Source of the DNA: a virus
IMG/VR virus record: IMGVR_UViG_3300017742_004322
Location: 10,939 to 74,938 of that record
Length of the DNA stretch: 64,000 bases
Strand: one strand, 5' to 3'
Shown: piece by piece, positions 43,019 to 47,123 of the stretch
Numbering within the stretch: position 1 is the stretch's first letter
How the letters are laid out: each line of letters begins with the position of its first letter
Program-made: the position numbers and the translations under genes
The notes under the pieces: generated by a model
The model's database searches: none
Told to the model about the DNA's origin: nothing
Seen by the model: only the letters and a program-made list of their open reading frames with translations

Positions 43019-43438
43019 TTACTTTCTAAAGCCCTTGTGGTTATCTATGCGATCTAATAATTTATTTAATTCTTCAGCTTTTATAAATCCAGCCATAGAT
43101 GCATTTTTAAGGGCACTGATTATTTGTAATATAATGAACGGTATGATAACTGCTTCGCTAAGCCAAGCTGTTCCTGTAAAACCTTTTTCTACCATTAATA
43201 CTACTGTTAAAAACATAACCCAACCTATAGCACGTTGTAATACACGAACTGCTTTTCTTGTTTGAAAACCTTCACGTTTAATTCCAGCTACTATACCAAA
43301 AAAACCATCTATAAAGACAACAGCTATTAAGCCAAGATATTGTTCAGCGTTACTCATAGTAAGCTCCATAAAATAAGAGCATAAAAAAGATAGTGTCAAA
43401 ATAGGGACGGTTAAGAAAGTTATAGTGGAAGTTTTCAT
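43019..43438 (-). CDS. Phage holin family 4-like protein
   Basis: Multiple TM, D.FFG...G, IISALKNA; coupled to endolysin. Confidence 0.7.
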   Translation of the reverse strand: MKTSTITFLTVPILTLSFLCSYFMELTMSNAEQYLGLIAVVFIDGFFGIVAGIKREGFQTRKAVRVLQRAIGWVMFLTVVLMVEKGFTGTAWLSEAVIIPFIILQIISALKNASMAGFIKAEELNKLLDRIDNHKGFRK

Positions 43439-43905
43439 ATTGACCAGTTTTCGTAATAAGTCTTTCCTTTGGAATTTCTTTTAGCTGATAGGATTTGGCC
43501 TCTTTGTTCTCCATCACTATTATATGAAACATGAACCCAATCAGGTCTTTCGTTAGTTCCAAATTCCCAGATTAATTGGTCAAATGGTAAATTTTCTCTA
43601 ATATAATGAAATATTTCTTCATTTTCTGGGCCATTTCGATAATCCATATCAATATCAATAGCTTCACCTTTTGAATGTTGTGAAGTCTTGGAGCCACCAA
43701 TTGCTTCATTTAAAGCTTGGCTTCTATATCCTGAAGAAATGAAAATAGGTTTAGCGAAGTGTTCTCTAATTGGTTGAAATATTTTTTCAGCTAATAATTT
43801 AGCTGCCTCTAGATGTTTGCCTTTAGGAGTATTATCTAAACCTCTACGTTTTGCAGTTGAAGATCTAGTAAATTCACCTAAAGATAAGTTTTTAGATAAT
43901 TTCAT
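43435..43905 (-). CDS. Peptidase M15A Zn-dependent endolysin (start ATG 43905)
   Basis: LSKNLSLGEF, SSGYR, SQHSKGEAID, WVHVS. Confidence 0.88.
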   Translation of the reverse strand: MKLSKNLSLGEFTRSSTAKRRGLDNTPKGKHLEAAKLLAEKIFQPIREHFAKPIFISSGYRSQALNEAIGGSKTSQHSKGEAIDIDMDYRNGPENEEIFHYIRENLPFDQLIWEFGTNERPDWVHVSYNSDGEQRGQILSAKRNSKGKTYYENWSI

Positions 43906-43912
43906 AAGTTTA

Positions 43913-43987
43913 CTAATTACAATTACAGCATGAACATCCACAGGTAAAGTGACAATTACATACTATACAATTACAGCTATTTTTCAT
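43913..43987 (-). CDS. Metallothionein-like 24-aa Cys-rich peptide (not in track)
   Basis: MKNSCNCIVCNCHFTCGCSCCNCN, 9 Cys + 1 His; ATGA overlap with upstream stop, stop 7 nt before endolysin ATG. Confidence 0.75.
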   Translation of the reverse strand: MKNSCNCIVCNCHFTCGCSCCNCN

Positions 43988-44232
43988 TTTTTAGCAAATT
44001 TTTCTAATCCTGCGATACCAAATGAACCTAATGTGATAAATACAAATGAGTTATAAATGAATTCTTGAATTACTAAGTCTTTACCAAAGTAACCTGTTAC
44101 TAAGTCTACTATAGCAAATATTACCATTACAGCAAACGCCATAAATCCAATAACATTCTTTTCATTTACGTTATTATCATCTTTAAAAATATCTTTAAAG
44201 GCCATGATTTTATTTTTTATATTATTAGGCAT
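43984..44232 (-). CDS. Small 2-TM membrane protein (holin/antiholin-like)
   Basis: Two TM segments, basic C-terminus; start may be MAFKD. Confidence 0.6.
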   Translation of the reverse strand: MPNNIKNKIMAFKDIFKDDNNVNEKNVIGFMAFAVMVIFAIVDLVTGYFGKDLVIQEFIYNSFVFITLGSFGIAGLEKFAKK

Positions 44233-44814: not shown

Positions 44815-45387
44815 TTATTCTTTTTCTGTTGCGTATTTAACTCCCATAATTGTGCCTACAATAGAAAATGCATTTGTAAGTAAAATACCAAACATATTAC
44901 TCCAGGTTGATCCTATAATTTGAGTATCTGCTCCTGAAGTTAGTGCGATAGCATACATAATTGTAGTAATTATACCCACACCAACTATTACTACTAAAGC
45001 AACTTTCACAATTGTACTAATTAGTTCAAATTGGGTTTTCTTTTGCATTACTTCTAAATCTTCTAATGCTTTATCCTTACCCTTTTCTGCTTTTTCTCTT
45101 AATTGATTTGATGATTCTAATGCTACTTGAAGCTCCTTCATTAGAGTATCATTTTCTTTTTGTTTTTCAACAAGTTCTCCATTTTGTTTTTGAACTTGTT
45201 TCGTAACCTCTAAACGTTTTTTACGTCTAGTAGTATCTTTTTCTTTACAGAGTTCAAGATATTTCTCAAATTCATTATCACCTTTTGGGGCTTTAAGAAG
45301 TTTAAGGAAATTTCCTTCTACATAGATTTTTCTTTTTTTAGCAACCTCTAGTAGAACATTTCTTACATGCTCTGTTATTTCTATCAT
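44815..45387 (-). CDS. Coiled-coil protein with two C-terminal TM helices
   Basis: Heptad-rich region then VALVVIVGVGII... and MFGILLTNAFSIVGTIMG. Confidence 0.75.
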   Translation of the reverse strand: MIEITEHVRNVLLEVAKKRKIYVEGNFLKLLKAPKGDNEFEKYLELCKEKDTTRRKKRLEVTKQVQKQNGELVEKQKENDTLMKELQVALESSNQLREKAEKGKDKALEDLEVMQKKTQFELISTIVKVALVVIVGVGIITTIMYAIALTSGADTQIIGSTWSNMFGILLTNAFSIVGTIMGVKYATEKE

Positions 45388-45824
45388 TACCTATAAACTT
45401 TAAATTCAGCTGATCTATCTTTATAAGCATCATAATCTGTCATAAATTCTTCTAATCGAGGTTCAATATCATCTGATTTAATAATCCAAAATTGAGCTCC
45501 AGCGGCTTTTGCTTTTTCAATTTCTTGATTGTCATCTGATGATGATATAATTCCTATTACACATCCATTACCATACTCAAAATTAATTTTACGAATTAAC
45601 TCAATTCCATCAAAAGATGAACCAAGTATATTTAAATCAACAAATACACATTCGGGGCGTTCTTCATTAGGGTCATCGGGCCACCATTCTTTAAATTTAA
45701 GATTAGCTTCATCTGAAGAATTAAGGGCTTCTAGAGATAAAGTTATATCTAAGATGCTACAGGCATCTTCAAATACCAAGTGGAATAGATCCTCATCGTC
45801 TATAAGTAATATAGAATTTATCAT
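45387..45824 (-). CDS. Stand-alone response regulator (receiver domain only)
   Basis: LLIDDE, FVDLN (phospho-Asp), IISSS, IIK. Confidence 0.9.
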   Translation of the reverse strand: MINSILLIDDEDLFHLVFEDACSILDITLSLEALNSSDEANLKFKEWWPDDPNEERPECVFVDLNILGSSFDGIELIRKINFEYGNGCVIGIISSSDDNQEIEKAKAAGAQFWIIKSDDIEPRLEEFMTDYDAYKDRSAEFKVYR

Positions 45825-47059
45825 GTTGTTTTAATTTTTATTTTTAATATAGTTCCTGTTTTTGTTTTTTCAGAGGTTATAGCAAAACCATGTTCTTTTA
45901 ATATTGCGATACATATATTTAATCCTAACCCTGATCCTCCTTCTTTTTGCCCTGCTTTTCTAGTATATGGTTTTGATAATTGAAGGAATTCTTCATTAGT
46001 CATTCCTCTTCCATTATCTTCTATACATAAAGTAGAATCATTACCCATATAAATAGATACTAATTTAGTAGAACTATCATTATATTTTAACCCATTTCTA
46101 ATTAAATTGTCTATTGCTGTACAAAATAAAGGTTCATTTACATTTACTACAGGTAAACTTTTAATTTTAACTTGCTTAATATAAGATGTAGCAGATAAAT
46201 AATTATTTAGTATAACTGCTAAATTATGATCTTCCATATCTAATTGAGCATCTTCTTTTACTAAGTTAGTAAATTCTTTAACTCCAGCATAAACTCTTTG
46301 TGTATGTTTTAAACCTTCTTCTAACATTTTTAAAGGAGCTTCTATTTTTAATTCTTTAATTTTTTCAGCAGAAACTCTTCTTTTTAAAGAAGTTAACCCC
46401 CTAGGCATATATGTGTTAATTCCACTATGCATATCGTGTCTTAAAATTTTAGCAGCATGTTCTAAATAAGAATTTTTCTGGTTGACTTCAATTTCAGCAT
46501 TGTGTTGTATAGTTGTATCTGTTGCTATTTTTAAAACTTTATTATACCCACCCTTAGGATCTTTTATTGGAGTATAATTACCAAATAACCAACGAGAAGT
46601 ACCATCCCTAGCAATTCTTTCAAATTCACCACTAATAGTTTCACCTCTTTGTAGTCTTTTCCAAAATTCATGATAGTCTAAACTATTGCTATACTCTTTA
46701 GGAACCATATATCTATGGTTTTTGTTTTTTAATTCTTTTTCTGTATAACCCATAGTAGTACAAAAGTTGCTATTATGAGATAAAATTTTCCCTTCCATAT
46801 TAAGTACTACTACTATATTTGATTTATCAATTGCATTTAATTGTAAATCAATATTTGCTTCTTTTAATTTAGAAGTACGATTAAAATCCCAAATAATATA
46901 AGAAAAGAAAGGAATTAGGGCAATTATACATCCATACCCAAATTCAGCTAAAAAATAACTAAACTCAAATACTCTAAATACAAGAAAAGTTTCTAATATA
47001 AAGAATATAAGTATAATTCCAACTGATATGCCTAAACATATTTTTGTAGCTTTATTCAT
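45821..47059 (-). CDS. Membrane PAS-domain sensor histidine kinase
   Basis: 2 TM; PAS (N..F...GY...EL, FW..L..G); H-box RHDMH; N-box NLIRNGLKY; G1 EDNGRG; G2 GSGLGL. Confidence 0.92.
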   Translation of the reverse strand: MNKATKICLGISVGIILIFFILETFLVFRVFEFSYFLAEFGYGCIIALIPFFSYIIWDFNRTSKLKEANIDLQLNAIDKSNIVVVLNMEGKILSHNSNFCTTMGYTEKELKNKNHRYMVPKEYSNSLDYHEFWKRLQRGETISGEFERIARDGTSRWLFGNYTPIKDPKGGYNKVLKIATDTTIQHNAEIEVNQKNSYLEHAAKILRHDMHSGINTYMPRGLTSLKRRVSAEKIKELKIEAPLKMLEEGLKHTQRVYAGVKEFTNLVKEDAQLDMEDHNLAVILNNYLSATSYIKQVKIKSLPVVNVNEPLFCTAIDNLIRNGLKYNDSSTKLVSIYMGNDSTLCIEDNGRGMTNEEFLQLSKPYTRKAGQKEGGSGLGLNICIAILKEHGFAITSEKTKTGTILKIKIKTT

Positions 47060-47071
47060 AGTTATAAATAT

Positions 47072-47100
47072 AAAAAAAGGAACGCTAAATTGCGTTCCTT
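47072..47100 (-). terminator. Intrinsic terminator after nrdA operon, upstream of histidine kinase
   Basis: AAGGAACGC-AATTTA-GCGTTCCTT followed by T-run. Confidence 0.85.
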
Positions 47101-47123
47101 CTTGGCATTTTAAATAAAGTAAT

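Follow-up and report, generated by a model that had tools for sequence, protein, structure and literature searches.

The lysis cassette contained in the window studied here (the whole stretch of DNA that was analyzed, 64 kb out of a 74.9-kb IMG/VR record and about half a genome) carries, between a holin-like membrane gene and an endolysin, a reading frame of only 24 codons, nine of which specify cysteine. This raises the question as to whether such a short stretch is a gene at all and, if so, what a peptide this rich in thiols may be doing beside a zinc peptidase. Judged from its sequence, the micro-gene belongs to an undescribed family of nine-Cys, metallothionein-like peptides from marine Bacteroidota phages and their hosts, in which it is a divergent member; what is new for the window is that the gene is inserted into the lysis cassette, that its sequence is divergent and that it matches a domain of a plant type-2 metallothionein. 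The features concerned are the following:

43913..43987, minus strand: micro-gene of 24 codons with 9 Cys, ATG to TAG (stop TAG at 43913-43915)
43984..44232, minus strand: holin-like lysis-cassette partner of 82 aa with two hydrophobic segments (two-TM), whose stop overlaps the micro-gene ATG
43435..43905, minus strand: Peptidase_M15_3 endolysin of 156 aa (PF08291, E 6e-22), ATG at 43905
43019..43438, minus strand: holin, Phage_holin_4_1 (PF05105, E 2e-8), overlapping the endolysin stop
43906..43987, minus strand: 82-nt insertion relative to sister phages, with a direct repeat ATGAAA at 43982-43987 and 43900-43905

The initial annotation had placed a 24-aa ORF with nine Cys at 43913-43987, and it is found there on the minus strand, running from ATG to TAG. 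Its description of the two junctions was equally accurate: the ATG of the micro-gene and the TGA of the upstream 82-aa gene form an ATGA overlap with the A in common, and 7 nt (TAAACTT) separate the micro-gene stop from the ATG of the M15 endolysin. The endolysin has H77-x6-D84 and H125, the zinc ligands expected for its fold. Across the six frames of the whole window, the micro-gene is the sole stretch with at least seven Cys per 24 residues; in 100 simulated windows (first-order Markov, 64 kb, same dinucleotide make-up), at least nine Cys in 24 codons never occurred (0/100) and the mean count of stretches with at least seven was 0.04 per simulation. The ORF is shorter than the length limits of gene callers, and relatives of its peptide were found in none of the gene-call-based resources searched.

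Selection on the cysteine codons and insertion at the junction

Relatives of the window phage were fetched by way of the two flanking proteins and not by way of the peptide, which makes the test for selection free of circularity. An orthologous 24-codon ORF, with start and stop kept, is present in five contigs whose flanking proteins are 96-100% identical. The initial annotation had proposed synteny in related phages as a check on the gene, and the outcome is the one it had anticipated, with all nine Cys kept and synonymous TGT/TGC swaps in the five relatives: none of the nine Cys codons changes its residue and four of the nine alternate between TGT and TGC, as against 8 of the 14 non-Cys codons that do change residue (Fisher p 0.007 vs Cys). 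Within the window clade, the nucleotide identity of the micro-gene is 77-80% versus 92-95% for the flanks, and the identity of the peptide 71% versus 96-97% for the neighboring proteins; in the closest orthologues of the window peptide, His13 is replaced by Gln and Phe14 by Ala. The micro-gene is a real coding gene whose cysteines are under purifying selection.

It is hardly credible, given these data, that there is no gene here and merely a TGTAAT-rich spacer or a DNA or RNA element, a case that the initial annotation had itself envisaged in the form of an unconserved spacer. Such an explanation can draw on the presence of TGTAATTGT three times within the 75 nt and on the shortness of the ORF, which escapes gene callers. 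The repeat, however, is made of the Cys-Asn-Cys codons of the micro-gene, and a DNA-repeat explanation was rejected on this ground. Substitutions fall in codon phase, with only third-position T/C exchanges at the Cys codons and free change elsewhere; the start and stop are conserved, the RNA of the micro-gene folds no better than shuffled sequence (z -0.18) and matches no Rfam family, and homologues exist in many unrelated contexts.

The next clade out, with endolysins 87-93% identical, lacks the intervening ORF. Membrane gene and endolysin overlap directly in L005 and L138 (ATGA/GTGA; ..AAAAA[A/G]TGAAATTAAGT..), and in L095 and L101 a 9-nt gap lies between the two. As the sister phages lack an ORF at this junction, the micro-gene copy in the window is an insertion of 82 nt, bordered on either side by ATGAAA. 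The window phage is also distantly related to the Flavobacterium phage Immutovirus (L001), in which a homologous membrane gene directly abuts an endolysin of another type (annotated chitinase/endolysin). Among relatives, the holin-like two-TM gene is found directly upstream of two different endolysin types; the same gene standing before differing endolysins indicates that endolysin modules are swapped at a fixed junction.

A nine-cysteine family in marine phages and Bacteroidota

IMG/VR was scanned for the codon framework C-x-C-x2-C-x-C-x3-C-x-C-x-C-C-x-C. An initial, unrestricted Cys pattern was abandoned, its matches being mostly poly-TGC/TGT repeats of giant viruses; in the refined pattern, T was barred at the first base of five inter-Cys codons, which excludes poly-Cys repeats. 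The scan returned at least 118 stretches, and 108 of those listed are free-standing ORFs of 20-24 codons; a scan of metagenomes added, among the matches listed, further members on marine contigs, including TARA and JGI samples. Over IMG/VR, species genomes and metagenomes, at least 188 distinct peptides of 20-24 aa share the framework CxCxxCxCxxxCxCxCCxC, which is also invariant in the orthologues fetched independently of the pattern. The carriers are many uncultured marine phages, probably of Bacteroidota, and the family is large, undescribed and widely distributed.

The family consensus reads M-K-C-N-C-K-x-C-x-C-G-T-S-C-x-C-x-C-C-x-C, and several of its properties were not imposed by the pattern. 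The ATG lies 0-3 codons ahead of the first Cys (up to 4 in the family definition); the stop comes at most two codons past the last Cys, and immediately after it in nearly all members; a G-x-S motif (Gly after the fourth Cys, Ser/Thr before the fifth) is present in the majority of the family. Likewise independent of the pattern is the scarcity of F, W, Y and H, which together account for 5 of 3970 residues across the listed family (F 1, W 0, Y 2, H 2), the window copy accounting for the single Phe and for one of the two His residues among the listed peptides. This copy falls within the family definition, at its long end, with a four-residue N-terminus and one residue (Asn) after the last Cys. 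Where the family usually has G-x-S, it has H-F-T and its orthologues Q-A-T, and it is therefore a divergent member of the family.

No model of Pfam, NCBIfam or PHROGs covers the family peptides. The family profile matched none of 1.84 billion representative proteins, as expected if such ORFs are never called, and a tblastn search with a family peptide against 50,697 GenBank phage records gave no match, the low-complexity filter probably masking the query; a literature search found no paper on the family, nor any on a metallothionein from phages or Bacteroidota. The family is plentiful in ocean metagenomes but goes unseen by gene callers and in protein databases; it therefore constitutes a concrete example of functional micro-genes missing from the annotation of marine viruses and their hosts.

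Among the matches listed, the commonest viral context places the peptide between a 444-aa and a 163-aa protein, neither of which has an assigned function. The smaller neighbor, encoded at L285:708-1211 and at 17 homologous loci (163-167 aa), opens 9-11 nt beyond the micro-gene and contains a zinc-ribbon-like CxxC..CxxC arrangement; the 163-aa protein has no Pfam match and the ESM Atlas gave no useful lead. The other contexts of the family are variable accessory regions, in which most neighbor proteins are without assigned function. Several genes flanking family members open with a near-constant leader, M-D/S-N-F-D/N-L-K/R-K-Y-L-A/T-E-G-K-L (L291:3183-3743, L257:2954-3529 and L281:39-521). Longer variants of the peptide were also encountered (L286:798-905, L373:1054-1143 and L374:7011-7148); one of them has 36 aa, an extra N-terminal CxCxxCxC block and 13 Cys, and the others have N-terminal extensions of 11-12 residues or a basic 15-residue C-terminal tail.

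The gene is owned by hosts as well as by phages. Among species-representative genomes, the same ORF is present in at least about 29 MAGs and SAGs of marine Bacteroidota, once on a 1.1-Mb contig. In one marine flavobacterial genus with genomes of 1.0-1.3 Mb it occupies a fixed chromosomal slot, in the order glnII, Na/Ca exchanger (on the other strand), 119-aa gene, peptide, lipoprotein and pirin, with a gap of ~290 nt after the peptide ORF. The cellular orthologues were fetched via the upstream 119-aa gene, which provides a second non-circular test for selection. All 15 loci whose 119-aa gene is at least 61% identical carry a 21-codon ORF with the nine Cys; no Cys varies (0/9), eight of the nine Cys codons are synonymously variable, and variation is seen at 10 of the 11 remaining codons (p 1e-4). 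The ORF is not present at seven more distant loci of the 119-aa gene, and the latter was found only within the genus, with none among 300 genomes sampled at order level and 200 at family level.

At ~21 family loci, among the matches listed, a terminator lies 3' of the micro-gene; this position, together with the lack of any unusual RNA fold in the window, argues that the peptide itself is the product. The reverse would hold if the micro-gene were a cis-acting relay of Cys codons, handing ribosomes on to the endolysin and throttling them at scarce Cys-tRNA, with a peptide that has no function of its own. The ATGA overlap and the 7-nt gap do preserve a coupling that sister phages obtain by direct overlap, and 9 of the 24 codons are Cys; a relay, however, needs neither the exact Cys spacing nor the conserved Gly/Ser nor the fixed length observed in the family, and it would be hard to reconcile with a gene that is the last before the terminator at the ~21 listed loci, that is followed by the ~290-nt gap in cells and that offers no alternative RNA structure. 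The chance that the micro-gene is such a relay appears very slim. A leader-peptide attenuator or regulatory upstream ORF was considered as well and rejected, as the fold is ordinary (z as above), the downstream gap is only 7 nt, and spacing and length are fixed in the family.

A conserved hairpin was observed ~8 nt after the micro-gene stop in L296:2612-2730 and about 20 other loci, as follows:

Loci sharing the post-stop hairpin with L296: L228, L257, L283, L288, L290, L294, L308, L309, L311, L313
Loci sharing it, continued: L314, L319, L326, L331, L335, L346, L353, L362, L364

Its stem covaries (GACTG/CAGTC, GTCCG/CGGAC, GCTCG/CGAGC, GTTCG/CGAAC), its loop ATTCATAGC is nearly invariant, being ATTTATAGC in L314 and L331, and no Rfam family matches it. 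Beyond the hairpin come a GC-rich hairpin with a T-run (intrinsic terminator), a conserved CGTATATTA and then a FAD/NAD(P) dehydrogenase of 430-520 aa (phrog_12409). This dehydrogenase, downstream at 21 loci, was examined as a functional partner of the peptide and rejected, as a terminator stands between the two genes and the loci look like one phage lineage; the linkage may be one of descent.

Relationship to known metallothioneins

With 24 aa and nine Cys (37.5%) in the window, and 20-24 aa and nine Cys in the family, these peptides are small and Cys-rich in the manner of metallothioneins, and their conserved framework contains the CxC, CC and CxxC motifs that serve as a criterion for this class. 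A further criterion, few or no aromatic residues and His, describes the listed family at large, but the window copy has a Phe and a His, both of them replaced in its nearest orthologues. The sole non-repetitive match outside Bacteroidota and their phages, among the matches listed, is an 80-aa plant-type metallothionein encoded at L475:186-425 (minus strand) and recognized as a plant type-2 metallothionein by PF01439 (Metallothio_2, E 2.9e-15). A second contig, L446, 331 nt long and part of an Isoptericola croceus assembly, also encodes a plant type-2 metallothionein; short and of low coverage, these contigs in two bacterial assemblies are evidently contamination by plant cDNA or DNA.

The C-terminal 21 residues of the plant protein have a nine-Cys framework identical to that of the family, along with the G-T-S motif; the domain ends in ..CSCCNCN-stop exactly as the window peptide does, with 14 of 21 residues identical. 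An hhalign comparison of the family profile with the 80-aa protein gave a probability of 96.8%, aligning residues 60-80. The plant type-2 protein comprises two Cys-rich domains joined by a spacer of ~35 residues, whereas the phage peptide consists of a single domain only. The gathering threshold of PF01439 (plant types 1-3) is 23 bits, and the best family member stays below it with 9.6 bits (E 2.4); the window peptide has no match to this model. Being pattern-selected and composition-biased, the plant match does not prove homology, and similarity between Cys-rich, low-complexity sequences can be convergent. What it shows is that an accepted metallothionein uses a domain with the Cys arrangement of the family for metal binding; at the sequence level, it therefore supports a metallothionein-like reading of the peptide.

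Other metallothioneins resemble the family more loosely. The beta domain of vertebrate and crustacean metallothioneins contains nine Cys and forms an M(II)3Cys9 cluster. It shares with the phage peptide the number of Cys, their arrangement mostly in CxC pairs (including CxC-x3-CxC) and, taking the family as a whole, the scarcity of aromatic residues, and by this analogy the expected stoichiometry would be three divalent ions or about six Cu(I); the phage peptide differs in being free-standing, ~30% shorter and differently spaced, and has no detectable sequence relationship to the beta domain. Bacterial SmtA/BmtA (family 14, PF02069) are ~55 aa long, fold in the manner of a zinc finger and use His as ligands. 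They are prokaryotic and contain a C-x-C-x2-C-x-C stretch, as does the phage peptide, but their His co-ligands have no counterpart in the family, where His is not conserved; PF02069 gave no Pfam match for the family even at E up to 10, and the literature search found no report of SmtA/BmtA from Bacteroidota or phages. Wheat Ec-1 (PDB 2KAK), with its CxCGxxCxCxxCxC stretches, is the only PDB sequence touched by the family profile; the match is non-significant (E 9), and the Cys count and spacing differ from those of the family. The only Pfam and PDB hints for the family are thus metallothioneins (Metallothio_2 and wheat Ec-1 2KAK), both non-significant, and no metallothionein-family HMM reaches threshold on the family peptides.

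Closest in size are the fungal family-8 Cu-thioneins of Neurospora crassa and Agaricus bisporus, which have 26 aa and 7 Cys in the pattern X2-CXC-X5-CXC-X3-CXC-X2-C-X3 and were long held to be the shortest metallothioneins (PMC4755600). They too are free-standing and built from CxC, and have CXC-X3-CXC in common with the phage peptide; their pattern does not fit it, with nine Cys, another spacing and 20-24 aa. If the peptide binds metal, the family would be the shortest metallothionein-type protein family known, below the 26-residue fungal Cu-thioneins (PMC4755600), and the first such family in phages and Bacteroidota as far as the searched databases and literature show. The metallothionein-like character proposed by the initial annotation is thus backed by the Cys framework, by selection and by the plant-domain match; the histidine that it had counted as part of the motif drops out, as it is not conserved (His13 to Gln).

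Possible roles of the peptide

The ORF is probably the gene for a cytoplasmic mini-protein of the metallothionein type, which would be translated, bind metal and act as a general buffer of metal or thiols, a proposal drawn from sequence comparison. The nine thiolates would enclose a small cluster of metal ions, whose number, by analogy, would be three for Zn(II) or Cd(II) and several for Cu(I). In this phage lineage, the gene arrived with the 82-nt insertion, placed precisely where an ATGA joins the holin-like membrane gene to the M15 endolysin, and transcription and translation therefore probably run through it together with the lysis genes. The role of the peptide would most likely be general, namely the buffering of Zn, Cu, Cd or thiol redox in the infected cell, and a dedicated partnership with the endolysin is improbable. 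The genomic neighbors of family members provide no metal-handling context (in the cellular slot: glnII, Na/Ca exchanger, lipoprotein and pirin). Were a phage to carry a metal buffer, trace-metal handling would join the host processes known to be reprogrammed by marine phages; with a 21-24-mer that can be synthesized chemically, the idea is directly testable, and the plant metallothionein domain provides a natural reference.

The nine thiols could instead serve a role foreign to metallothioneins, as a sacrificial thiol or ROS buffer, as a carrier of Fe-S or persulfide, or as a tight-binding inhibitor of a host protein (anti-defence). Selection on Cys fits any thiol chemistry, the fast turnover of non-Cys residues (71% identity for the peptide versus 96-97% for its neighbors) is of the kind seen in arms-race proteins, and the gene often resides in variable accessory regions, beside the genes that share the constant N-terminal leader. 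On the other side, the exact framework equals that of a known metal-binding domain, fixed spacing with CxC and CC and few or no aromatics is a metallothionein signature, and a 21-residue peptide with 43% Cys offers little surface for the specific recognition of a protein. A role of this kind is considered unlikely.

A dedicated partnership with the M15 endolysin, in which the peptide would deliver zinc to the enzyme or strip it, possibly in a redox-dependent manner, and so set its activity or the timing of lysis, was the model favored by the initial annotation. The location makes it attractive: the micro-gene lies 7 nt upstream of a zinc peptidase with an intact H-x6-D...H, inside a lysis cassette, and a second, independent lineage (L169) has the peptide 11 nt after its endolysin, with relatives of L169 having it after the holin. 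In L169, whose endolysin is 47% identical to that of the window, the order is holin, endolysin, 11 nt, peptide; in its relatives, the peptide directly follows the holin (phrog_3427), and beyond it come a conserved hairpin, then an intrinsic terminator, then a FAD/NAD dehydrogenase with a promoter of its own. It is thus suggestive that placement in or beside lysis cassettes arose at least twice.

The wider distribution of the family points away from such a partnership. An M15 endolysin adjoins only 4 of the 108 viral family loci among the matches listed, representing two independent events, with three of the four loci in the window clade and L169 as the fourth; the dominant contexts are proteins without assigned function. 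In sister phages the same pair of membrane gene and endolysin operates without the peptide, cellular homologues have no endolysin nearby, and the His is not conserved, so that the proposal of a peptide supplying or withholding zinc for the endolysin finds little to sustain it. Regions beside phage lysis cassettes are, moreover, hot spots for accessory genes. As the peptide is a free-standing module, as sister phages lyse without it and as cells lack an endolysin near it, a gate dedicated to the endolysin is therefore judged quite improbable, and a general buffer remains the probable reading. There is only a small chance that a mobile mini-metallothionein was co-opted independently in the window and L169 lineages as a translationally coupled zinc gate of the M15 endolysin; if such a gate were real, apo or Zn-loaded peptide would time endolysin activation, and the metal and thiol status of the cell would become an input to lysis timing.

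The phage itself is widespread, as near-verbatim copies of the segment 43000-45400 of the window occur in at least 14 DNA runs belonging to about 12 marine or viral metagenome studies (2014-2025). In the metatranscriptomes of two studies (X15 and X16), contigs extend without a mismatch across 43630-44152 and join the start of the endolysin to the micro-gene and the membrane gene; they speak to transcription, not translation, and are compatible with one polycistronic RNA, in libraries that may contain carried-over DNA. Metatranscriptome cover is lacking upstream of 44215, which is not interpretable. The strand run to which the lysis cassette belongs also contains, further upstream, a PAS histidine kinase and a receiver-only response regulator (45387-47059). 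Between the PAS kinase at 47059 and the lysis cassette there are no terminator-like sites, and a terminator-like hairpin occurs only ahead of the kinase (47074-47103).
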